DNA of 64,000 nucleotides, taken from contig JAUYKE010000021.1 in the NCBI GenBank assembly GCA_030700125.1, positions 2,492 to 66,491 of the forward strand. The letters run 5' to 3'. The notes beneath the pieces were generated by a model that ran no database searches, was not told where the DNA came from, and worked only from the letters and a program-made list of their open reading frames with translations. A program made the translations under genes and the position numbers. Source of the stretch: Candidatus Colwellbacteria bacterium (GTDB lineage Bacteria; Patescibacteriota; Minisyncoccia; UBA6257; Colwellbacteraceae). This document shows, in pieces, positions 9,000 through 56,017 of the stretch. Positions within the stretch are counted from its first letter, which is position 1, and each line of letters begins with the position of its first letter.

Positions 9000-10283
9000 A
9001 TGTCTTTTACTCGTCAGCAACTTATCTTCCTCGGCGTTGTCGGCGCCATTGTTTTAATATTTCTCATCATCTTTTTTGCTGGAGGCAGGAGATCATCAAC
9101 TGAGAGAGTAGAACTCACTGTTTGGGGAATAGATGACAAAGTAGCTTGGCGTGACACTATTTTTCAGTACCGAAGGCTCCACTCAAACGTCAGAATAGAA
9201 TATACCCAGATTGACCCGGAAAATTATGAGAAGGAACTTGTAAATGCCCTGGCTGCGGATCGAGGTCCGGACATTTTTATGTTTAACAGTCGCTGGCTTT
9301 ATAAGCACGGCGATAAAATTGCCGCTTTTCCCTCGGAGACGATGAGTCTTAGCGCCTTTAGTGAACTCTTCCCGAAAGTGGCGGAACAGGACTTTCTTTA
9401 TAATGGGCAAATTTATGCCCTGCCTCTTTCAGTCGATACCCTGGCTCTTGTTTACAACCGGGATATTTTTGATGGGCGAGGCGTGGCTCTATCGCCGAAG
9501 ACCTGGGAAGAATTCCAATCTCTTGTTCCCCGCTTGAGAACTATTAATAAACAAGGAAGCTTGACGCTTGCCGCTGCTTCAATCGGCGGCCCTTCAGAGA
9601 ATATACCGAATGCTGCTGATATTTTATCCCTTTTAATGTTCCAGGCAGGTGCCACTCAAACGGATGAAGAGCTTGGCACGACCAGGATTAATCCTAACAC
9701 GAAGGAGGGCGAAAACGCTCTTAGCTTTTATGCTCAATTCGCCAGTCCAACCAGTACTTACTATGCTTGGAGTAATTCTTTTGAATCCTCTACCGAATCT
9801 TTTGCCGAGGGTAAAACAGCAATGGTTTTCGTTTATGCCTACCAACTCCCCCGGATTAAGGAAAAAAATCCTTTTCTGGATTACGCTATTGCGCCAGCAC
9901 CGCAAATCAATCCCGATAACCCAATAAACATTGCCAACTATTGGGGATTGGCAGTTTCTACGAAAAGCTTAAGCCAAAACGTGGCCTGGGATTTTGTGAC
10001 GTTTGCTGCAACCGACAAGGATAATGCGGCCAATTATCTCAAGACTACCTCCCGCCCGCCGGCTTTGAGATCCCTAATCAATGATCATCTAAGTGATAAA
10101 GATCTTGGCGTTTTTGCCAGTCAGGCGTTAACCGCCAGAACTTGGTTTCAGGTTGATGATATAGCTTTTCAAAGGATTCTTAACGGGGCGATAAAAAGAG
10201 CGCTGGGAGGAGCCCCTCTCTATCAAGTTTTAAGGCAGGTCGATGCCGAAATAATCCAACTGGAAAGAGAGTTAACAAGATGA
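9000..10283 (+). CDS. extracellular solute-binding protein (ABC transporter family-1 SBP), N-terminal membrane anchor
   Basis: 427 aa; signal-anchor then typical sugar-type SBP pattern (LTVWG...DIFMFNSRWL...); no permease/ATPase adjacent. Confidence 0.7.
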   Translation: MSFTRQQLIFLGVVGAIVLIFLIIFFAGGRRSSTERVELTVWGIDDKVAWRDTIFQYRRLHSNVRIEYTQIDPENYEKELVNALAADRGPDIFMFNSRWLYKHGDKIAAFPSETMSLSAFSELFPKVAEQDFLYNGQIYALPLSVDTLALVYNRDIFDGRGVALSPKTWEEFQSLVPRLRTINKQGSLTLAAASIGGPSENIPNAADILSLLMFQAGATQTDEELGTTRINPNTKEGENALSFYAQFASPTSTYYAWSNSFESSTESFAEGKTAMVFVYAYQLPRIKEKNPFLDYAIAPAPQINPDNPINIANYWGLAVSTKSLSQNVAWDFVTFAATDKDNAANYLKTTSRPPALRSLINDHLSDKDLGVFASQALTARTWFQVDDIAFQRILNGAIKRALGGAPLYQVLRQVDAEIIQLERELTR

Positions 10284-10654
10284 CGGATTTCCTAAGCTTT
10301 ATAGGGGTAAAAATAGCGCTGGCGCAAGGGCTTGTCCCCAATTGCTCTCCGACTGAATGCGGGGAAGAGCAGCTTCTTCAATTAGGCGTAAATGTCATCA
10401 ATTTTATGATTCAGTTTCTCGCTTTCCCCCTCGTCGTTGTCTTTTTCCTTTGGGGCGGCTTTCTTCTTCTCACCTCCGGCGGTTCGCCTAACCGGGTAGA
10501 GCAGGGTAAAAAAGCGATCACTGGTGCTATTATCGGATTGGTGATTGTTCTCACTTCGGTGGTAGTGATTAACACCCTTCTTGGTACCTTTACTAGCTGC
10601 GAAGTCAAATTGAGCCAAATCGGTAAAGTTAATTGTCCAGGTATCACAGATTAG
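10280..10654 (+). CDS. small two-TM protein, T4SS-pilin-like (TrbC/VirB2-type 'pilin' fold candidate), paralog 1
   Basis: 124 aa; hydrophobic helix - WGGFLLLTSGGSPNRVEQGKKAITGAIIGLVIVL - second helix; ATGA start overlap with SBP gene. Confidence 0.5.
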   Translation: MTDFLSFIGVKIALAQGLVPNCSPTECGEEQLLQLGVNVINFMIQFLAFPLVVVFFLWGGFLLLTSGGSPNRVEQGKKAITGAIIGLVIVLTSVVVINTLLGTFTSCEVKLSQIGKVNCPGITD

Positions 10655-10701
10655 CAATTTGTTATTATGAAATTAAGCCTCCACCGCCATAAGAGATAAA
10701 A

Positions 10702-11112
10702 ATGAAACATTCTATCCAGTCACTTTTCATTATTCTCCTAGCTTTGTTCGCATTCGGATTTCTAAATCCGGCTCTTAGTCCTGCCCAGGCTCAAGTAGGC
10801 GGCGGGAATCCTAACGGATTAGTTATCGAAAATCCCCTCAACTTCGGCACCATCCCAGAGATCCTTAATGCCGTTGCGGGATTTCTCTACGTAACTGCCC
10901 TTGCCGTAGTAACCGTTATGGTTCTTTGGGGAGGTTTCCAGATTCTTACTGCCGCCGGCAGTCCGGAAAGGATTGATAAAGGCAAGAAGACGCTTTTATA
11001 TGCTGTCATCGGGACAGTAGTTATCATCATCGCTGGCGGGATGGCCGATCTTACCGCTAATATTCTCGGAGGGGGAACCCAGCCGGGTCCTCCTGCTGGC
11101 TCACTACCATAG
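10702..11112 (+). CDS. small secreted two-TM protein, T4SS-pilin-like, paralog 2
   Basis: Signal peptide (…LNPALSPAQA/QV), then LWGGFQILTAAGSPERIDKGKKTLLYAVIGTVVIII motif shared with neighbours. Confidence 0.5.
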   Translation: MKHSIQSLFIILLALFAFGFLNPALSPAQAQVGGGNPNGLVIENPLNFGTIPEILNAVAGFLYVTALAVVTVMVLWGGFQILTAAGSPERIDKGKKTLLYAVIGTVVIIIAGGMADLTANILGGGTQPGPPAGSLP

Positions 11113-11182
11113 CCGTTCGCTCTCCACAAGGACTTTATGCTATCATTAGGGAAACCCAAAAGGTCGGAAGCTAAGATCGTGT

Positions 11183-11542
11183 TTGATGAGCAAGTTCAAC
11201 TTACAGAAACTGACAACGAAAATTAACTCCGCCTACGTTGGTGCTGTCCTTGTCCAACCAGCAAGAGCACTAGGAGAACCAACAGCACCCATTAAGACTG
11301 CTCAAGGGGTTGTAGACGCAATTAACCAAGTAGCCAATTTCTTATTTGCAGTCTTCCTTGCTTTGGCCGTTATCTTCTTGATTGTAGCGGCACTTTTTTA
11401 TCTGACTGCAGCAGGCAATCAGACCCAGCTTGATAAGGCAAAGAATACTTTAATTTATTCCATCGTCGCCATTGTAATCGCCTTGATTGCGGGCGGATTA
11501 ACAGCCTTTATCGGCGATATTTTAGGAACAAGAGCCTTGTAA
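11183..11542 (+). CDS. small two-TM protein, T4SS-pilin-like, paralog 3
   Basis: LFYLTAAGNQTQLDKAKNTLIYSIVAIVIALIAGG motif shared with the two upstream genes. Confidence 0.5.
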   Translation: MMSKFNLQKLTTKINSAYVGAVLVQPARALGEPTAPIKTAQGVVDAINQVANFLFAVFLALAVIFLIVAALFYLTAAGNQTQLDKAKNTLIYSIVAIVIALIAGGLTAFIGDILGTRAL

Positions 11543-11561
11543 TTATACTTGGATACTAGGA

Positions 11562-11602
11562 GGCCCCGGACACGCTTGTACGCGCCGGGGCCTTTCGTTT
11601 TT
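11562..11602. terminator. rho-independent terminator (GGCCCCGG...CCGGGGCC + TTTCGTTTTT), bidirectional between pilin-like operon and convergent GC-rich gene
   Basis: Hairpin plus T-run seen directly. Confidence 0.7.
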
Positions 11603-11624
11603 CATCACCTCCTTTCTAGCTGGT

Positions 11625-12536
11625 CTAGCTGGTCGTGACGGTGGCATCCTCCGCCCCTTGATTGTTGCGAAGACGGAAGATGCCGCGCTTGGTGCCAACG
11701 TACTGCGGCGCTCCCTGCTTGAAGACAAGCGCCGTCCCGTCCCAGAACTCGATTCCGGCCGTCGACCCAAGGGGGTCGAGGTCAACCCGATAGCTCGACC
11801 CTGGCGGGGTTGTGACCCATCCGGTCCAACACCCGCTCTGGAGCTGAACTGTGATCTGCGTCACTCCCTCGCCGAAGTTGTAGGAATCAGGCTCGCCGGG
11901 ACAGACATTGACGTCTATCCCTTTGACCTCCGCCGGCGCCGCCTTCGCGTTCTCGGTTTGCCAGTTCTGGTACCACGGCTCCTTGGAAAAGAAGTGGAGC
12001 GTGAGACCTACGAGAACGATGACGGGAAGCCAGAAAAAGATGATTCTCCAGCCCTTTGATAGACCCAAAGAGAAGAGCATGAGTGCAGCCAGGATCGGGA
12101 TCCCAAGGACAAGTCCCCTGTTGTTCTCGACCGGGACGAAGAAGAAGTACGCCCCGATGGCGATCTCCGTGAGGAGGATGATCCTCAATCCTCGCAATCC
12201 GCTCGCGATGAGGTTCCGGATATCGCCCAGCTTATTGACTGTCGCGATGCCGCCACCGACCACCAGCCCTCCAGCCAGGTAATCCTGGTAGCGAGGTTGG
12301 GTGATCGCCCAGATCACCCAACCGAGGGCGGCAAAGGCTGCGAAGATCACGAGCCCGGTAAGCGCGTGAATCCCCGTCAGGGCCGCCAATGTGAGGGCAA
12401 TTGGTAGCCCGACGATGACCACCGCCGTGTAGCGGATCGCCAGCCGGGCCCATCTGCCACCATGTTCCCATCCGAGCCGGAGGAAGCTAATGGCGTTCCG
12501 AAGCTCTTCGAATAGCCACTGTCCTATAGTTCTCAT
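11625..12536 (-). CDS. hypothetical polytopic membrane protein with Cys-containing C-terminal extracytoplasmic domain (GC-rich island)
   Basis: 303 aa, ~6 TM helices; GC-rich codon usage distinct from flanking genes. Confidence 0.5.
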   Translation of the reverse strand: MRTIGQWLFEELRNAISFLRLGWEHGGRWARLAIRYTAVVIVGLPIALTLAALTGIHALTGLVIFAAFAALGWVIWAITQPRYQDYLAGGLVVGGGIATVNKLGDIRNLIASGLRGLRIILLTEIAIGAYFFFVPVENNRGLVLGIPILAALMLFSLGLSKGWRIIFFWLPVIVLVGLTLHFFSKEPWYQNWQTENAKAAPAEVKGIDVNVCPGEPDSYNFGEGVTQITVQLQSGCWTGWVTTPPGSSYRVDLDPLGSTAGIEFWDGTALVFKQGAPQYVGTKRGIFRLRNNQGAEDATVTTS

Positions 12537-13213
12537 CGCATCCTCCTTTCTCGGAGCTCAGTGAGTCGCCGCTCCCGTTCCTCACGGGATTCCTGGAGTC
12601 GCTGTGCCGACTCGGTAGCCTTCGCGTCGAGTTTCCGAAGCAGCCCAGACTTCCGCTTGGTACCATGGAGTCGCTTTTTCGCACCGTTCTTGAGTCCTTG
12701 CCAGTCGGTCGGCCGACGAGGAGACTTCGGCGGTTTCATGGAATCGCTTAGCTCTTTAAGGAACCTTCGCGTTTCCATGCTCTCCTGCCACTCAGCCTTG
12801 AGCCGCTCGCGCTCAGCATCCTTGTCAGCCGCATTGCGGAGTCGCTCCGCCGCATCTTTGACAAACCGCTCCCCCTCCGTTTTCATGTAGTTCTCATAGA
12901 GGACGGTCCCCGGATCCTTCTTCTTCCGGAAATAGACAGTGCCGAAAATATCGCTAGCATCGCTAGCTATTGCCTCGACACTTGTACCTAGCCATCCTCC
13001 CCGAACTTCGGCTTTCTTCTCAGCCTCGTTGATAACGACAGTGAAAACACGTTCAGCTAGTCCCCCCCGCGACCAGTGGTCGTCCGGGTAACGAGCGGCA
13101 AGCCATTCTGCTCCCCGCTCGATATTCATTCTCATCTCTGGACGTACGGCACTGATGAACCCTCGTAGCGCTCTCGCGCCACCATCCTTTTTGTTTTCTT
13201 TCTCGTCTGGCAT
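12533..13213 (-). CDS. hypothetical protein with highly charged K/R/E-rich C-terminal coiled-coil tail (GC-rich island)
   Basis: 226 aa; 4-nt overlap (ATGA) with downstream membrane-protein gene implies operon. Confidence 0.5.
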   Translation of the reverse strand: MPDEKENKKDGGARALRGFISAVRPEMRMNIERGAEWLAARYPDDHWSRGGLAERVFTVVINEAEKKAEVRGGWLGTSVEAIASDASDIFGTVYFRKKKDPGTVLYENYMKTEGERFVKDAAERLRNAADKDAERERLKAEWQESMETRRFLKELSDSMKPPKSPRRPTDWQGLKNGAKKRLHGTKRKSGLLRKLDAKATESAQRLQESREERERRLTELRERRMR

Positions 13214-13226
13214 CTTAGTTCCCTTT

Positions 13227-13595
13227 CTACTCCGATTCCTCTTCGTCTGATTCTACAGCGGCATTTTCCATCTGGATTTCCACCAGACTGTCTATCTCCC
13301 AGCGAATCTCAGGACAGACATTGCCGCAGACCATGCAGACACCCAGCGTCACAAGCGATCCTTCAGGATCAATTGTGAATTCGGGCATCCAGAGAACAGA
13401 GTGGGTCCCTCGCTCCTCGCACTTAGCGCAAAGAGTTGAGAGAATTGTCCATTCGGGACGAGCCATCTCCCTCTCCTTTCGTCCGTCGTAAGTATTACAG
13501 AGGTGATATTGTTGATTGTTTTTAAAGACCCCCTGCCCATTGCTGGACAGCCTCTCGAGCACAAGGCTCAAGACACCCATTTCTACCATATCCAA
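13227..13595 (-). CDS. hypothetical Cys-rich protein (CxxC…CxxC zinc-ribbon-like) with acidic C-terminus (GC-rich island)
   Basis: 122 aa; CAKCEERG … CMVCGNVC motifs. Confidence 0.45.
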   Translation of the reverse strand: MDMVEMGVLSLVLERLSSNGQGVFKNNQQYHLCNTYDGRKEREMARPEWTILSTLCAKCEERGTHSVLWMPEFTIDPEGSLVTLGVCMVCGNVCPEIRWEIDSLVEIQMENAAVESDEEESE

Positions 13596-13601
13596 ACTTA
13601 T

Positions 13602-13631
13602 TTGTCAATGATTTAAAATTTGATGTATAAT
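13602..13631 (+). promoter_or_regulatory. sigma-70-like promoter (TTGTCA-18nt-TATAAT) driving leader + tRNA-Leu
   Basis: Consensus hexamers seen directly upstream of structured leader. Confidence 0.5.
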
Positions 13632-13653
13632 ATCGACACTGGGCAGGTGGCGA

Positions 13654-13708
13654 AATGGTATACCCCAGTAGTAGTCCGCCGGAGGCGGACACTACGGGGC
13701 AGGCGCGC
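13654..13708 (+). ncRNA. conserved structured leader element, copy A (AAUGGUAUA-CCCC(A)GUAG-UAG-hairpin-CA-CUACGGGG-CAGGCGCGC), directly 5' of tRNA-Leu
   Basis: Closing helix CCCC-A-GUAG/CUACGGGG plus inner hairpin UCCGCC-GGA-GGCGGA; two related copies elsewhere in window. Confidence 0.45.
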
Positions 13709-13712
13709 AATT

Positions 13713-13794
13713 GCCCCCGTGGCGGAACTGGTAGACGCGCATGGTTTAGGACCATGTCTCGAAAGAGGTAGGGGTTCAAATCCTCTCGGGGGCA
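13713..13794 (+). tRNA. tRNA-Leu (anticodon TAG), long variable arm, no encoded CCA
   Basis: GCCCCCG-TG-GCGGAACTGGTAGACGC-...CATGG-TTTAGGA-CCATG-variable arm-GGGGTTCAAATCCTC-TCGGGGGC-A. Confidence 0.85.
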
Positions 13795-13816
13795 CAAAAA
13801 TTTTATCAAAAAGAAA

Positions 13817-13849
13817 ACCCCACCAGTCCGGGACGGACTGGCGGGGCGC
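13817..13849 (-). terminator. hairpin (CCAGTCCG-GGA-CGGACTGG, extended) followed on the minus strand by T-runs; terminator for the metallophosphoesterase gene
   Basis: Seen directly. Confidence 0.5.
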
Positions 13850-15219
13850 TAGAAGTGACAAGAACTTTCACGGAGCTCACCCGGCCCGTCAAAGAGCATG
13901 AGGCAGGCCGAGGCGAATGTCTTTGTCTTCGCCTCGAATTCAACGAGGGCAAATCCGTAAAGCTGCTCTACCGCGTGAACGAAACCGCCGGCACCGCTCG
14001 TTCCCGGTGAGACAGAAATCACCGTACCGGATCTTTCAAAGAACTGACGGTGATCATGCCCCGAGACAAAAACGAGCGGCAACTCGATTTCCTCCGCGTA
14101 GCGTGCCGCACATTCACCGACCTCGGGATTGTGGACGAGGATAATCAGTGCATCTGTTTTCGCAAACTCCCTCTCGAGCTTGCGGCAGATTTCCGAAAAC
14201 GACATTTCTGCCAGTTTCGGATCCCGGTCGTCAATGCCTCCAAGCGGATCGCTCTCGCCGATGATTCTTATGCCGCGAATTTCGGTAAGAGCGCCGTTCT
14301 CGAGCAGGCGGATGTTGGACGCCTCCTTCACTCTCTGGATAGCCGCTTCGTCCTCGTGATTTCCGGCGACAAGGATGTAGGGTATCCCATTGTCGCTACT
14401 CCGGACGAAGAAATCGGCTTCCATTGCTGTTCCTCGATCGGTGAAGTCACCGGCATCGAGAACAGCATCTACCTTGAAGCTCTTCGCTAACTCGCGCGCC
14501 ATCGCCATCCCCAGCGGGTTATTGTGGAGGTCTGAAACGAGCAGGAACTTGACGGTTGGAGGTGTTGGCACCTCTGCCCCGGTTGTTACCTGTTCGTGGA
14601 GACGCACAAGCCCGGCGATCACTTCGTTGAAGGTAAGCTGCGCCTTATCCCAGTCTTCTTGGATTTCCGTCACTAGCCGGAAAATCCGCGGGGCATCTTG
14701 AATCGGCCCCCTATAGGACGGGTTGCGAAGCGATTGAGGGTTAAAGGTGAGGGCGGCTACAGTTCCGAGGATTGTCACAACGACAAAAGTCGAAACGATA
14801 GAGAGGGCGGCTCCGATAATCCGCCTCCGTGGCGGACCATTAATGGCGACTACTCCGAAGAGGCCGCCAAAGAGCAGAAGCCAGAGCAACTTAGCCCAGA
14901 TTAGCTTCCACGTCAGACCGCCGAAATCCTCCGGTTGGGGCAGAGTCTCGGCGCTATCTCCGACAACAAACACCGCCTCGACGTTCAAGGGGCCATAGTG
15001 GGTTCCCCAGGATAGCTCACCGAGCGGACCGAGACCGAGCTTGAGCTCGCCTCCGGGGATGGCTGGTGCCAGCCGTAATGAGAGCTTGCCCGTTTCAAGA
15101 TGAAACACCGTCGGGCTTACGAGCTCCACGCTGACGAAAACCAAAAAAGCCACCAGCACGATTCGAATGATTGCCGATTTCACATTCACCTCCTTCCTGT
15201 CAAAGGGCTTAATTACCAT
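13849..15219 (-). CDS. membrane-anchored calcineurin-like metallophosphoesterase (GC-rich island)
   Basis: N-terminal TM segments then LLVSDLHNN, GDFTDRG, VAGNHED, GHDHRQ metallophosphoesterase motifs. Confidence 0.75.
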   Translation of the reverse strand: MVIKPFDRKEVNVKSAIIRIVLVAFLVFVSVELVSPTVFHLETGKLSLRLAPAIPGGELKLGLGPLGELSWGTHYGPLNVEAVFVVGDSAETLPQPEDFGGLTWKLIWAKLLWLLLFGGLFGVVAINGPPRRRIIGAALSIVSTFVVVTILGTVAALTFNPQSLRNPSYRGPIQDAPRIFRLVTEIQEDWDKAQLTFNEVIAGLVRLHEQVTTGAEVPTPPTVKFLLVSDLHNNPLGMAMARELAKSFKVDAVLDAGDFTDRGTAMEADFFVRSSDNGIPYILVAGNHEDEAAIQRVKEASNIRLLENGALTEIRGIRIIGESDPLGGIDDRDPKLAEMSFSEICRKLEREFAKTDALIILVHNPEVGECAARYAEEIELPLVFVSGHDHRQFFERSGTVISVSPGTSGAGGFVHAVEQLYGFALVEFEAKTKTFASACLMLFDGPGELRESSCHF

Positions 15220-15295
15220 GCGGTAATAACTGCCAGGATGCTATTTTGTGCCTTCCACGTCAAGCCATTCCCTCCTCCGGCACAATTTCAAACCT

Positions 15296-15324
15296 TTGAC
15301 AAAAAAATTAAAAGTTGGTATCAT
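15296..15324 (+). promoter_or_regulatory. sigma-70-like promoter (TTGACA-17nt-TATCAT) for rpsO
   Basis: Seen directly 11 nt upstream of rpsO ATG region. Confidence 0.5.
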
Positions 15325-24182: not shown

Positions 24183-24253
24183 TCGGGGCGCCGAGACTCG
24201 AACTCGAACTAAATCCTCCCAAAGGACTCGTGCTGCCATTACACTACGCCCCG
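24183..24253 (-). tRNA. tRNA-Pro (anticodon TGG)
   Basis: CGGGGCG-TA-GTGTAATGGCAGCAC-G-AGTCC-TTTGGGA-GGATT…TTCGAGTC…CGCCCCG-A. Confidence 0.8.
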
Positions 24254-24670
24254 ATACTTATATTTGTTTTTCAATAATTCCTCTAATCTACTGCTTAGCT
24301 TCAGGTAGGTGGCTTTATCGGAATATCTAATTTTACATGTTCCCATACTTTTCCCGACCTTATTACCTTGAGGTCTAACTATAGTTTTTGTAAATCTATT
24401 TTTTGGAATTCTAGTTACTTCTGACCAATAATTCTCTATGTATTCTTTGTCATCTCCTTCGTGAATTTGAAGTTGTAATTTTAAACGTGGCTCATCTATC
24501 CTGATATCGTTCCTTAAGAAATCTAAGAACAATTTTATTATGTCCGGATTTGTATTAGTAACGTCAACATTGCGTATCCAGGTGTTTTTCCACCGTTTAT
24601 CTTTATATGCTTTAGTCCCTTCTGTCCACCAAATTATTATACCTATAACTTCTCTCAGACTATATCCCAT
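24239..24670 (-). CDS. AT-rich hypothetical protein inserted within a tRNA operon (3' end overlaps tRNA-Pro by ~15 nt)
   Basis: 143 aa, K/N/I/Y-rich, composition distinct from the neighbourhood. Confidence 0.45.
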   Translation of the reverse strand: MGYSLREVIGIIIWWTEGTKAYKDKRWKNTWIRNVDVTNTNPDIIKLFLDFLRNDIRIDEPRLKLQLQIHEGDDKEYIENYWSEVTRIPKNRFTKTIVRPQGNKVGKSMGTCKIRYSDKATYLKLSSRLEELLKNKYKYRGVV

Positions 24671-24737: not shown

Positions 24738-24806
24738 CGCGCCTGCCCCGTAGCGAGCCATGCCGTGTGGCGAGCTTTGCTCTGCTACTGGGGTACCACC
24801 ATCACC
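24738..24806 (-). ncRNA. conserved structured element, copy C (GGUGAUGGUGGUA-CCCC(A)GUAG-CAG-hairpin-CUACGGGG-CAGGCGCG), between tRNA-Arg(TCT) and the AT-rich ORF
   Basis: Same closing helix and flanks as copy A at 13654. Confidence 0.45.
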
Positions 24807-24855
24807 TTCCTGCGCTAAAGCTACGAACGGGCACAGTACGCCAGCCCGTTCTTTG

Positions 24856-47144: not shown

Positions 47145-47154
47145 TTTTACACGT

Positions 47155-47205
47155 GCCCCCGAGAGGAATCGAACCTACATTATGAGCTCCGCCCCGCACC
47201 ATGCT
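47155..47205 (-). pseudogene. tRNA 3'-half-like fragment (T-arm + 3' acceptor: GTAGGTTCGATTCCTCTCGGGGGCA) without a 5' partner; last 14 nt identical to 3' end of tRNA-Leu(TAG) at 13713
   Basis: Cannot be folded into a full cloverleaf; only ~55 nt available between flanking tRNAs. Confidence 0.4.
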
Positions 47206-47347: not shown

Positions 47348-47399
47348 TCTGCCTGCCCCGCACCGAACTTCGTTCTGGTGCTGGGGTCCATTAAACTAC
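47348..47399 (-). ncRNA. conserved structured element, copy B (UAAUGGA-CCCC(A)GCA-CCAG-GAAC-GAA-GUUC-GG-UGCGGGG-CAGGCAG), ~65 nt upstream of tRNA-Arg(GCG)
   Basis: Closing helix shows compensatory change (GCA/UGC instead of GUAG/CUAC) relative to copies A and C. Confidence 0.45.
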
Positions 47400-47434
47400 G
47401 AGGGCAGGACTCTCTTATTATTCACGTCTTACGA

Positions 47435-53485: not shown

Positions 53486-53629
53486 GACACGAAAACAGGG
53501 TTTTTGGGAGTGTCCCATTTTGCAACCTGAGTAGTTGCCAGGCGGTTGACTAATGGCATTAAATATGCCATTCTTTGGTGTCCTTTAATAGCGTATTCTC
53601 TCCACCGAAAGCGAAAGGAGGTGGTCGAC

Positions 53630-56017
53630 ATGATCCCAATGCTACACCAGCAGGACTGCCTGGACCGCCTCCAGGCGGTTCGTAAGCAAGGCCATGAACG
53701 TGCCCTCATCGTGGTTGCAACTGGCCTTGGTAAGACTGTCATTTCGGCTCTCGACATAAAGCAGTTTCGGAAGCTGAAGCGTGGTGGTCGAGTGCTCTAC
53801 CTCTGTCACCAGAAGGATATCCTCCGGCAGGCTCGGAGGACCTTCGAGCTCGTGCTCGGAGAGGAGGCGACCTACGGGTATTTCCACGGCATGGAAAAGC
53901 ATTTCCACGACGTGGATTGTCTCTTTGCCTCGTTCCAAAGCATGCGCGAGTGGCGTGAGGCTTTCCTTCCGGATGAGTTCGACTACATCGTGATTGATGA
54001 GAGTCATCATGGTCCGGCGCCGACTTACCGCCCCACGATCGAGTACTTTGAACCCAAGTTCTTGCTTGGAATCACCGCTACTCCGGATCGGACCGATCTC
54101 CAGGATATTCGGGAGATCTACGGACGGGAGGTCTACTCGCTTCCCATCGAGGAGGCTCTAGCCAAGGGGCTTCTCACAAGGGTGGACTATCGACTCATCA
54201 CAGATGAACTCGTCGATCTCAAGGTACTCGAGACGCCAGTTGGTAAGCTCAGCATAACCGAGCTCAACAAGAGGCTCTTCGTACCGAAGCGAGACGAGGA
54301 AATCGCACAGATCATCCAGAAGCGCATCAAGAAGATCAAGGACCCTCGGGTTATGATTTTCTGTCCTTCAGTGGACTACTGTATTCGACTCTCGGCGCTC
54401 TTGCCAGAAGCGATACCCATCCATTACCGGCTTTCCGGGAAAGACCAGGAAATTCGGCTTGAGTTATTCCGGCAGGGCCGGGTCAGGTCAGTCCTCACGG
54501 TCGATAAGTTCAACGAAGGGATTGATATCCCAGAAGCGAACGTAATTGTCTTCCTCCGCTCGACTGCTTCTCGGATGCTCTTCTTCCAGCAGCTTGGGAG
54601 GGGACTCCGGAAAGTTGAGGGGAAGAAGAAGGTTCTCGTGCTCGACTTCGTGGGTAACTGCGAGCGGCTCGAGCTGGTCCACTATCTGTGGTCTGAGGTG
54701 ATGACGTATCACTCTCATAAGATCTCGGGTAATGGACCGGCTCCAATCGAGATTGATGTCGGAAGCCTCAAATTCTCCGAGGTGACCAAGAACGTTCTGG
54801 ACGTCATCATGGCGGTTCGGGGCGGTTACACTAAGGAGATTTTGATCAAGCAGCTCAGGCAACTTGCCGAGCGGATCGGACGAATCCCTAGAAGAGTCGA
54901 CGTAGACAAGGCATCTCATGAAGGTCGATGCGCACACAGCGTGACTTTCACAAGGGTCTTTGGATCATTCCCTAAAGCTCTGCTGGCAGCGGGGTTTGAG
55001 CCGAACTATATTCGCTCTCTCCTCCCAAGTAAAGAGGAAATGATTCGTCTCCTCCGGGAACTCGGAGATAAACTGAAAAGAGTTCCCAGTCGGGAAGACA
55101 TTCGGCAGGCAAACAAGGAAGGGTTCTGCCCAAGCTGCTGGTACTACGAGCAACAGTTTGGATCACTTCCAGAAGCTCTCACACGTGCCGGCTTTAATCC
55201 TCGGAGATCAATCCGGCACACTCCGGAAGAGCTCATCGAAAGGCTCCAGTGGCTCACCAGAGAGCTAGGTCATCAGCCTTCGCATAGAGAGTTAAGGAAA
55301 GTAAGTAAGGAGATCAATGGTTTCCCGACCATTCTTCCTTTCCTGCGTGCTTTTGGCAATCTTGATGAGGCATTCGAAGCAGCAGGCCTCAGTAGAAGGC
55401 GAGGTATCGAGAAATATAAATCCTCGTACACGGAAGATGAGATTGTCTCTTACCTTCAGAGTCTTGCCAAGCAACTTGGTAAGACACCTAGCGCAGCTGA
55501 CGTAGGCCAAGCAAGTGCCGGCGGCAAGGGGCCAGGATCCTCCGCTATCGCCCGACGCTTTGGCAGTTTCAATGCAGCGCTTGAAGCAGCTGGATTACTA
55601 CCATTAAAGAGAAACTACACCGACGAAGAGCTTATTGATCTGCTCCGGCAGTGTGCTGAGGAGATCGGTAAAGTTCCCGGAAAGCAAGACCTCCTACACC
55701 ACGGCTGGCCAAGCCCTAACACATACCGACAACACTTCGGCTCGTATGCCATCGCGCTTGAGAGAGCTGGGCTTACGCCGACTGCTCGAAGCATCGCAAG
55801 AAGCATCTATAGCTTCGAGGATATAGTCAGGGCTGTCCGAAAGGTAGCGGAAAACCTAGGCCGAGTTCCTACTCTAGGTGAGTACGAATCACTCCGTGCC
55901 GTTGGCGAACCTACTCGCTACACGATTAGTAGGCGACTAGGCGATTGGAAGTCTGTACTAAAAGCCGCTGATCTTACAGGGGAAAACGAATCCCTGAACA
56001 CCCGGTTGGAGGGATAA
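53630..56017 (+). CDS. SF2 (ResIII/DEAH-like) helicase fused to six C-terminal homing-endonuclease-associated (HEAR-type) repeats; GC-rich
   Basis: Walker A ATGLGKT, Walker B DESHH, motif III GITATP, helicase-C motifs; C-terminal six ~50-aa repeats ending …FGS(F/W/L)xxALExAGL; AAGGAGG SD before ATG at 53630. Confidence 0.8.
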   Translation: MIPMLHQQDCLDRLQAVRKQGHERALIVVATGLGKTVISALDIKQFRKLKRGGRVLYLCHQKDILRQARRTFELVLGEEATYGYFHGMEKHFHDVDCLFASFQSMREWREAFLPDEFDYIVIDESHHGPAPTYRPTIEYFEPKFLLGITATPDRTDLQDIREIYGREVYSLPIEEALAKGLLTRVDYRLITDELVDLKVLETPVGKLSITELNKRLFVPKRDEEIAQIIQKRIKKIKDPRVMIFCPSVDYCIRLSALLPEAIPIHYRLSGKDQEIRLELFRQGRVRSVLTVDKFNEGIDIPEANVIVFLRSTASRMLFFQQLGRGLRKVEGKKKVLVLDFVGNCERLELVHYLWSEVMTYHSHKISGNGPAPIEIDVGSLKFSEVTKNVLDVIMAVRGGYTKEILIKQLRQLAERIGRIPRRVDVDKASHEGRCAHSVTFTRVFGSFPKALLAAGFEPNYIRSLLPSKEEMIRLLRELGDKLKRVPSREDIRQANKEGFCPSCWYYEQQFGSLPEALTRAGFNPRRSIRHTPEELIERLQWLTRELGHQPSHRELRKVSKEINGFPTILPFLRAFGNLDEAFEAAGLSRRRGIEKYKSSYTEDEIVSYLQSLAKQLGKTPSAADVGQASAGGKGPGSSAIARRFGSFNAALEAAGLLPLKRNYTDEELIDLLRQCAEEIGKVPGKQDLLHHGWPSPNTYRQHFGSYAIALERAGLTPTARSIARSIYSFEDIVRAVRKVAENLGRVPTLGEYESLRAVGEPTRYTISRRLGDWKSVLKAADLTGENESLNTRLEG

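Follow-up and report, generated by a model that had tools for sequence, protein, structure and literature searches.

A GC-rich stretch around a tRNA-Leu gene of Candidatus Colwellbacteria: a probable variable locus with two accessory slots

A 64,000-nucleotide stretch of a contig of Candidatus Colwellbacteria, a groundwater bacterium with a tiny genome (JAUYKE010000021.1; the whole stretch is called the window below), holds, between an array of VirB2-like pilin genes and rpsO, a GC-rich region at 11543-15220 that carries a tRNA-Leu(TAG) gene and four accessory protein-coding genes. Three of these, P1, P2 and P3, lie on the minus strand in the interval from the pilins to the tRNA gene (slot 1); the fourth, in the interval from the tRNA gene to rpsO (slot 2), encodes a metallophosphoesterase (MPE). 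The initial annotation of this DNA had taken the region for a horizontally acquired block, either the remnant of an integrative element or defence-like cargo. Its gene inventory was upheld with three corrections, which concern gene overlaps, the MPE start and a distant copy of the tRNA 3' end.

The region stands out in composition. Its GC content is 56.1%, against 47.0% in the rest of the window, and the highest value of any non-overlapping segment of the same length elsewhere is at most 51.6%, placing the region at z ~5.6. The three most deviant 3-kb tetranucleotide segments, with starts at 11001-12001, all overlap it, making it the strongest tetranucleotide outlier. GC content at third codon positions (GC3) is 0.749 in P1, 0.634 in MPE, 0.597 in P2 and 0.55-0.57 in P3, compared with 0.480 ± 0.063 in the 58 other open reading frames (ORFs). 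Since the excess is also present at third codon positions, amino-acid content alone does not explain it. The GC profile, the tetranucleotide signal and the GC3 of the four genes thus bear out the GC-richness claimed in the initial annotation and support a region that is compositionally foreign, synonymous sites included.

On the left, the GC-rich zone begins at the terminator of the pilin array, a GC-rich hairpin with a T-run read from the sequence at 11558-11600 (assigned to neither strand), with the GC step at 11550. On the right, the variable zone is bounded by the rpsO promoter on the plus strand (15284-15324, promoter proper at 15296-15324), recognized by sequence reading and repeat I1. 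The source is a metagenome-assembled genome (MAG), and the GC steps coincide with intergenic regions; both facts would suit a chimera in which assembly or binning had joined a GC-rich fragment of another organism to a contig of the candidate phyla radiation (CPR). However, the same 7-kb arrangement is reproduced by an independent Logan assembly of run SRR13727534 (L001), the rpsO-MPE, MPE-tRNA and tRNA-leader junctions recur in two contigs from other samples (L004 and L088), and L005, L006 and L007 again show the junctions leader-P2 and P2-P1. Because every junction recurs in independent samples, a chimera is hardly credible.

Transcription of P3, P2 and P1 on the minus strand is predicted to start at a TTGACA-17-TAGAAT promoter and to run through a leader of ~100 nt; together, promoter and leader span 13467-13623, as delimited by alignment A1, nhmmer and a centroid fold. 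A hairpin at the 5' end of the leader shows changes that are partly compensatory, and the centroid fold pairs an AACAAYATCACCTC box of the leader with the Shine-Dalgarno region. The folding energy of the leader shows no significant excess overall (z = -0.08), and no Rfam family matches it. P3 (13227-13466), the ORF between leader and P2, encodes 79 aa with an acidic tail and with cysteines C13/C16 and C44/C47/C51, which include two CxxC pairs; C13-x2-C16 and C44-x2-C47 form two knuckles at the ~20-30-residue spacing of a zinc ribbon. P2 (12533-13213) is by composition a soluble, highly charged helical protein of 226 aa, in which R, E and K make up 35% of the residues. P1 (11625-12536), judged from its ORF, hydrophobicity and GC3, is a polytopic membrane protein of 303 aa with 5-6 hydrophobic helices and a beta-rich C-terminal domain bearing Cys212 and Cys236. 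All three genes had been described as overlapping: the P2 stop and the P1 start do overlap by 4 nt (ATGA), but P3 and P2 are separated by 13 nt. Right after the P1 stop, a strong Shine-Dalgarno box (AAAGGAGGTGA) and a 19-codon ORF (MKNERPRRVQACPGPPSIQV) occupy 11543-11615 on the minus strand, running through the terminator hairpin.

For P1-P3, scans of Pfam, PHROGs, PADLOC and NCBIfam returned nothing above noise level. P3 has no family-level match in these databases or among 1.84 billion representative sequences, where its search returned itself and artefactual summed matches to eukaryotic Ig-repeat proteins; it was also not found in L005, L006 or L007. In searches of big databases, P1 and P2 each had a single homologue besides themselves. 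P1 homologues occur only in L007 (43-50% identity) and L027, and P2 homologues in L005/L006, L007 and L024, those in L027 (P1) and L024 (P2) having been recovered by profile iteration. Every known member of both families occupies the same slot. Neither IMG/VR, scanned with alignments of the P2 and P1 families, nor two JGI metagenome scans gave a match. P1 and P2 are rare, CPR-only families and P3 is an orphan. In L007, the C-terminal domain of P1 and its terminator are 81% identical to the window at the DNA level, compared with 43-50% for the whole protein, and this patchwise identity indicates that the gene is a mosaic.

MPE is annotated at 13849-15219 on the minus strand from its Pfam Metallophos match (1e-12), its motifs and a predicted model; its likelier start is a GTG at 15183 behind a GGAGG box, the start also used in L004. 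The gene is monocistronic, diverges from the rpsO promoter and ends at a terminator read from the sequence on the same strand (14-bp hairpin and T-run, 13817-13847). The PF00149 score of 49.3 bits, against a gathering cut-off of 21.5, and the metal-ligand motifs confirm the calcineurin-like phosphoesterase proposed in the initial annotation. The motifs DxH, GD, GNHE, H and GHxH are intact: D230/H232, D258, N287/H288, H363 and H388/H390 are all present, in columns of alignment A7 that are invariant or nearly so. The predicted model (predicted local distance difference test score, pLDDT, 85.8) places a transmembrane (TM) helix at 13-34, a five-strand beta domain at 37-86 and two further TM helices at 102-125 and 130-157 with an RRR loop between them, followed by two linker helices and the catalytic domain at 222-455. 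Sequence and fold searches of the PDB gave superfamily-level matches only. The initial annotation had stated that none of the four proteins matches a system that can be named; in the searches, P1-P3 have no family match and MPE is placed at the superfamily level. The positive-inside rule and four conserved cysteines suggest that the MPE catalytic domain probably faces outward. MPE may then be an ecto-phosphoesterase that scavenges phosphate or nucleotides, an activity that would suit a scavenging episymbiont. The MPE of L004 (L004:319-1665, 82% identical) has lost two nearly invariant ligands, with DLH changed to DLQ (H to Q) and GHDH to GHTE (H to E), which suggests that this homologue has lost catalysis.

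The setting of the region was compared among relatives in a PNPase-anchored scan with one genome per GTDB species, which yielded 80 Patescibacteria loci at 47-60% identity. In 76-77 of the 80, rpsO and NYN lie beside pnp, and in ~20 loci a tRNA-Leu(tag) gene precedes rpsO at a distance of less than 6 kb. On sufficiently long contigs, the gene order is gyrA, a solute-binding protein gene, VirB2-like pilins, tRNA-Leu and rpsO-NYN-pnp. None of P1, P2, P3 and MPE was detected in these 80 loci (tblastn, 1e-4). The check on contiguity called for by the initial annotation has two outcomes, the four genes being absent and tRNA-Leu and its flanks being syntenic. Being syntenic in the relatives' loci, tRNA-Leu(TAG) is native to the locus.

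Both slots hold other genes in the relatives. Slot 2 carries, in 15 of 17 relatives examined, a gene for a ~300-aa Phage_integrase/SAM_1 (Xer-type) recombinase, convergent with the tRNA gene and in the exact position and orientation of MPE in the window (for example L024:5411-6346 and L022:7602-8546). This recombinase has no tblastn match in the window and is absent also from L005. Slot 1 carries Band_7/SPFH genes and assorted membrane proteins ending in a Cys-bearing beta-rich domain.

Closer relatives share individual pieces of the locus. L005, a Colwellbacteria MAG, is the closest, with PNPase 84%, NYN 93% and S15 89% identical to the window. It lacks MPE and has an inverted tRNA-Leu, a gene for a 240-aa Y1_Tnp protein (PF01797), the leader and, directly after it, a P2 homologue (57% identity). 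The homology between this contig and the window breaks off at 15295. L004, from Hainich groundwater, has the rpsO side, MPE, an identical tRNA-Leu and the same leader, with an SPFH-like gene replacing P3-P2-P1. L007 has the leader, a P2-like gene and a P1-like gene, and L088, whose PNPase is 64.5% identical, has pnp-NYN-rpsO, MPE (42%), TerC and tRNA-Leu. Two further observations concern the difference from L005. The Y1_Tnp gene (L005:8028-9169, IS200-like) is low in GC (39%) and lies directly upstream of the conserved leader; it is possible that it drives rearrangement at the locus. An imperfect inverted repeat of 37 nt (73% complementary) joins the cassette promoter (13584-13620) to the rpsO promoter (15284-15320), bracketing exactly the tRNA-plus-MPE segment that differs from L005, and inversion could occur through it.

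The promoter and leader are matched in L004, L005, L006 and L007 (nhmmer E 1e-30 to 1e-42), where they precede three different first genes. They are the best-conserved piece: across these contigs the leader is 81-85% identical, compared with 57% for the P2 protein and 84-93% for core proteins. One conserved promoter and leader appears to drive different cassettes in different strains. The ratio of nonsynonymous to synonymous substitution rates (dN/dS) for P2 between the window and L005 is 0.17, and the accessory genes as a group range over 0.17-0.22, compared with 0.05-0.09 for core genes; all four are under purifying selection, which is more relaxed than in the core. These ratios, together with the intact MPE motifs, indicate that the accessory genes are real.

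The tRNA-Leu gene (13713-13795, plus strand), identified by a tRNA search and by synteny, has a promoter read from the sequence (TTGTCA-18-TATAAT, 13602-13631, plus strand) that diverges from the cassette promoter. Its allele, with acceptor GCCCCCG, is otherwise present only in L004; the nearest relatives, L005, L088 and L038, have GGGCAGG. Between promoter and gene, and transcribed from that promoter, lies what the initial annotation called a structured leader (copy A, 13641-13712, plus strand). Alignment to the relatives' tRNA-Leu shows that it opens with GGGCAGGTGGCGAAAT, the exact first 16 nt of tRNA-Leu(tag) in L088 and L038, and its local alignment score is 32, compared with 17.9 ± 2.2 for shuffled sequences (maximum 27). 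This tRNA-like start is followed by a hairpin element (CCCCAG...CGGGGCAGG) and then by the present tRNA-Leu. The structured leader looks like the stump of an ancestral tRNA-Leu gene, displaced when new DNA arrived. This is direct evidence that a replacement took place here, but not of how it came about.

The hairpin element is itself repeated. Three copies (CCCCAG...hairpin...CGGGGCAGGC) occur in the window, each beside tRNA genes: 13641-13712 (plus strand), ~24742-24835 and ~47352-47415 (both minus strand). Another lies at 1812-1885 of L004, where the inner hairpin shows compensatory C>T/G>A changes. From copy to copy, the two sides of the outer stem vary together (GUAG/CUAC versus GCACC/GGUGC). 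The element has no Rfam family and was not found in the loci of the 80 more distant relatives. The initial annotation had also reported a 14-nt copy of the tRNA-Leu 3' end at 47.16-47.20 kb. A copy exists; it is a degenerate T-arm and acceptor 3' strand of 23 nt with 2 mismatches at 47153-47175 (minus strand; BLAST E 0.018), and is weak evidence. It sits in the spacer between tRNA-Arg(gcg) and tRNA-Gly(tcc) and resembles the 3' ends of both tRNA-Leu and the adjacent tRNA-Arg; it is probably a decayed tRNA duplicate within a tRNA cluster and not an att site.

Several of these features could also be left by a self-mobile, tRNA-targeting integrative element with a tyrosine integrase and defence-like cargo, of which the region would be a decayed remnant. 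The composition is foreign and the region adjoins a tRNA gene; in relatives, the tyrosine recombinase abuts the tRNA 3' end, with 0-3 variable genes before rpsO; a tRNA-Leu relic lies upstream of the present gene and a partial 3' copy at 47.15 kb; and MPE has a weak match to PDC-S10 in PADLOC-DB 2.0, at the domain level and with 23 bits. Yet tblastn with the relatives' recombinases found no integrase in the window, and Pfam found no recombinase domain in P1, P2, P3 or MPE. The search for att-like direct repeats bounding the region gave none beyond chance, the sole shared 10-mer being two Shine-Dalgarno boxes. An insertion at the tRNA would place foreign DNA on one side of it, but GC-rich accessory genes lie on both sides, with different distributions among relatives and different histories. 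Both the position and the sequence of the relatives' recombinase are conserved, as in a housekeeping Xer, and 33 kb of housekeeping genes separate the tRNA gene from the distant partial copy. Phage tblastn and plasmid blastn searches found nothing apart from the tRNA, IMG/VR gave no relatives, and P1-P3 have no PADLOC match. The Y1_Tnp protein of L005 matches only L005 and L006 and not the L001 copy of the locus, the whole window not having been searched with it, and its domain is in none of the four island proteins (Pfam). We therefore consider an integrative element very unlikely. Neither the integrative remnant of the initial annotation nor its defence-like cargo survives these tests, the generic MPE-domain match being the sole defence match. 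The horizontal acquisition that it proposed stands in part: foreign composition, absence from the 80 loci, an Actinomycetota-type MPE, near-orphan P1-P3 and the tRNA relic all speak for import, and the atypical composition is coupled with a patchy distribution, as in genomic islands. What falls is the single block, because tRNA-Leu is native and syntenic and is flanked by two independent slots.

The MPE family comprises ~75 full-length clusters with the whole architecture. The names given by the sources in its main clade, the query's own cluster aside, are all Actinomycetota (best identity 46%), and the two named Actinomycetota MPEs that were looked up lie on contigs of 65-68% GC in unrelated chromosomal contexts; for the basal clusters, the look-up gave no taxon names. 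In a neighbour-joining tree, two pairs of CPR sequences (P0060/P0028 and P0001/P0002) split off separately close to the base of the main clade. The breadth of this distribution favours, without proving its direction, transfer of MPE into CPR. Within CPR, MPE occupies the same slot in two other contigs, L004 (82% identity) and L088 (42%), where it is still GC-rich; its GC3 is 0.62-0.71 in all three contigs, and dS between the window and L088 is saturated. GC3 kept despite saturated dS is better accounted for by repeated imports of MPE than by a single recent one. For the cassette genes, GC3 is 0.62-0.71 in every low-GC Colwellbacteria-level contig and 0.6-0.7 regardless of the genome that carries them, equal to the genome-wide GC3 of higher-GC relatives such as L024 and L027. 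This agrees with published work that traces most detected transfers into Patescibacteria to other Patescibacteria and that also reports genomic islands as common in this group, groundwater members included (PMC12455944).

The persistence of these genes also bears on a further alternative, that they are vertically inherited, fast-evolving residents whose GC-richness stems from gene-specific forces such as GC-biased gene conversion at a hot spot or the codon and amino-acid constraints of membrane proteins. The initial annotation had held that conservation of the same genes at this locus across the lineage would speak against import, and such conservation is partly present: MPE lies in the same slot in L004 and L088, and homologues of P2 or P1 lie in the same slot in L005, L024 and L027. 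High GC3 in lineages beyond synonymous saturation and purifying selection on the genes likewise fit long residence. Against it, the vast majority of relatives with this locus lack the families, similarly diverged strains carry different genes behind the same leader, and P2 is 57% identical where flanking core genes are 84-93%. Moreover, the MPE family is otherwise Actinomycetota wherever named, the tRNA allele itself has been replaced, and the homologous interval of relatives has no GC excess. On balance, vertical residence is fairly unlikely. GC-biased gene conversion acting on the locus in general was ruled out, as relatives have no GC excess there.

We propose, as the probable explanation though with real reserve, a recombination-prone variable locus around a native tRNA-Leu, with two accessory slots filled by lateral import. 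Composition, synteny, patchy distribution, the conserved leader, the tRNA relic, purifying selection and the intact catalytic motifs are the direct observations that carry this proposal. In slot 1, a conserved sigma-70-type promoter and leader would drive the resident cassette, here P3-P2-P1, in which P3 would be a small zinc-ribbon protein, P2 a charged helical cytoplasmic protein and P1, translationally coupled to P2, a polytopic membrane protein whose small, disulfide-bonded beta domain is probably exposed. The cassette looks like an envelope module, a putative functional analogue of the SPFH-plus-membrane-protein pairs in the same slot of relatives. Slot 2, which holds an Xer-type recombinase in relatives, would in this lineage have received a monocistronic, membrane-anchored, predicted binuclear MPE. 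Both slots would have been filled when laterally imported DNA recombined at conserved flanks, namely the cassette promoter with its leader, the tRNA and the promoter of rpsO. Other, higher-GC CPR lineages would be the source of the cassette genes, and an Actinomycetota-type, high-GC donor ultimately that of MPE. We infer these donors and this recombination mechanism, like the membrane topology and all functions given here, from the observations just listed. The GC-rich stretch is, in short, ordinary bacterial genome variation, neither a new mobile element nor a defence system.

A number of points weigh against this explanation. Relatives show no GC enrichment in the corresponding interval. A search of 5.8 billion protein clusters gave no MPE donor above 46% identity, and the direction of MPE transfer is read from its distribution, the neighbour-joining tree carrying no support values. 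The high MPE GC3 is kept in two CPR lineages whose MPEs are only 42% identical, so that a recent import, not yet ameliorated, is insufficient; its persistence needs repeated imports or a gene-specific bias and stays partly unexplained. The proposed functional analogy of the cassette is drawn from position and architecture. An AlphaFold model of P1 from a two-sequence alignment (pLDDT 48) was unusable. Comparison of P1 with the similarly built membrane proteins of most relatives (hmmsearch E 0.3-0.5; hhalign 65% over 34 columns) does not demonstrate homology, and P2 shows no similarity to the relatives' SPFH proteins (hhalign probability 0.1%). P2 likewise shows none to their 195-201-aa partner proteins.

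A bolder version would make the locus a dedicated cassette-exchange site. The promoter and leader, divergent from tRNA-Leu and next to the VirB2-like pilin array, would serve as both expression signal and recombination anchor, non-homologous envelope cassettes would be swapped between CPR strains and tune the surface for host attachment, and the outward-facing MPE would have been captured from Actinomycetota because these are the hosts. We regard this as quite unlikely; if it were true, MPE would be a molecular pointer to the host of Colwellbacteria. Independently of it, the membrane-anchored, probably extracellular MPE family, with members in Actinomycetota and in a narrow CPR clade, suggests an enzyme that scavenges nutrients and a possible link with a host or donor. 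The locus offers a worked example of how the accessory genes of ultra-small CPR genomes can gather at one small, syntenic hot spot, and of a compositional island straddling a tRNA gene that need not be an integrative element. The promoter and leader that appear to be reused by unrelated cassettes, and the functional tRNA-Leu allele that seems to have been replaced, leaving a relic of the older gene, are leads to be followed.

Two other features of the window may be recorded. A second GC-rich zone at 53546-56017 (plus strand; 52-54% GC, GC3 0.58) encodes an 823-aa ResIII/DEAD helicase with six HNH_repeat (homing-endonuclease-associated) repeats and is likely another accessory gene. At 24239-24670 (minus strand), a low-GC ORF of 143 aa without a Pfam match lies between tRNA-Arg(tct) with copy B of the repeated element and tRNA-Pro, overlapping the latter by 15 nt.

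Among known systems, the PF00149 superfamily (Rv0805, GpdQ, LpxH, YfcE and Mre11/SbcD) shares with MPE the five metal motifs and, in the predicted model, the fold (Foldseek probability 1.0). MPE differs in its N-terminal module, in which a TM helix and a five-strand beta domain precede a further pair of TM helices and a helical linker, and which no structure hit matches. It also has no solved relative by sequence and belongs to a family found mainly in Actinomycetota, with a few CPR members. In gene logic and position only, the P2-P1 pair is reminiscent of operons that combine an SPFH (Band 7) protein with a membrane partner, as in NfeD-type operons. In relatives, this slot holds, behind the same kind of promoter, a Band_7 gene and after it the gene of a membrane protein that ends in a beta domain; P2-P1 follows the same two-gene logic, a soluble helical partner being coupled to a polytopic one in the membrane. 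However, P2 has no Band_7 match in Pfam and P1 no NfeD or other Pfam match.

The island directly adjoins three divergent PF18895/VirB2-like pilin genes (10280-11542, plus strand; Pfam), whose position is conserved across relatives; such arrays are common and highly variable in Patescibacteria (PMC12102498). The island genes are not pilins, however, and are convergent with the array, so that any functional link is speculative. IS200/IS605 or RAYT elements of the Y1 type find a counterpart in the PF01797 protein of L005, directly upstream of leader-P2 and beside the inverted tRNA-Leu, but no terminal hairpin pairs were identified around the island. The locus can also be compared with tRNA-linked genomic islands and with hypervariable regions that lie between conserved core genes, among them the islands described from groundwater Patescibacteria (PMC12455944). 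The present locus differs from these in having no integrase, att repeats or mobility genes, in a tRNA that is central and not at the edge, and in its two independently evolving slots with a promoter and leader reused by non-homologous cassettes. Like them, it has an anomalous composition, lies close to a tRNA, differs patchily in gene content from strain to strain, carries orphan cargo and exchanges genes mostly within the phylum. Current views are thus not overturned, genomic islands and intra-phylum exchange being already documented for Patescibacteria.

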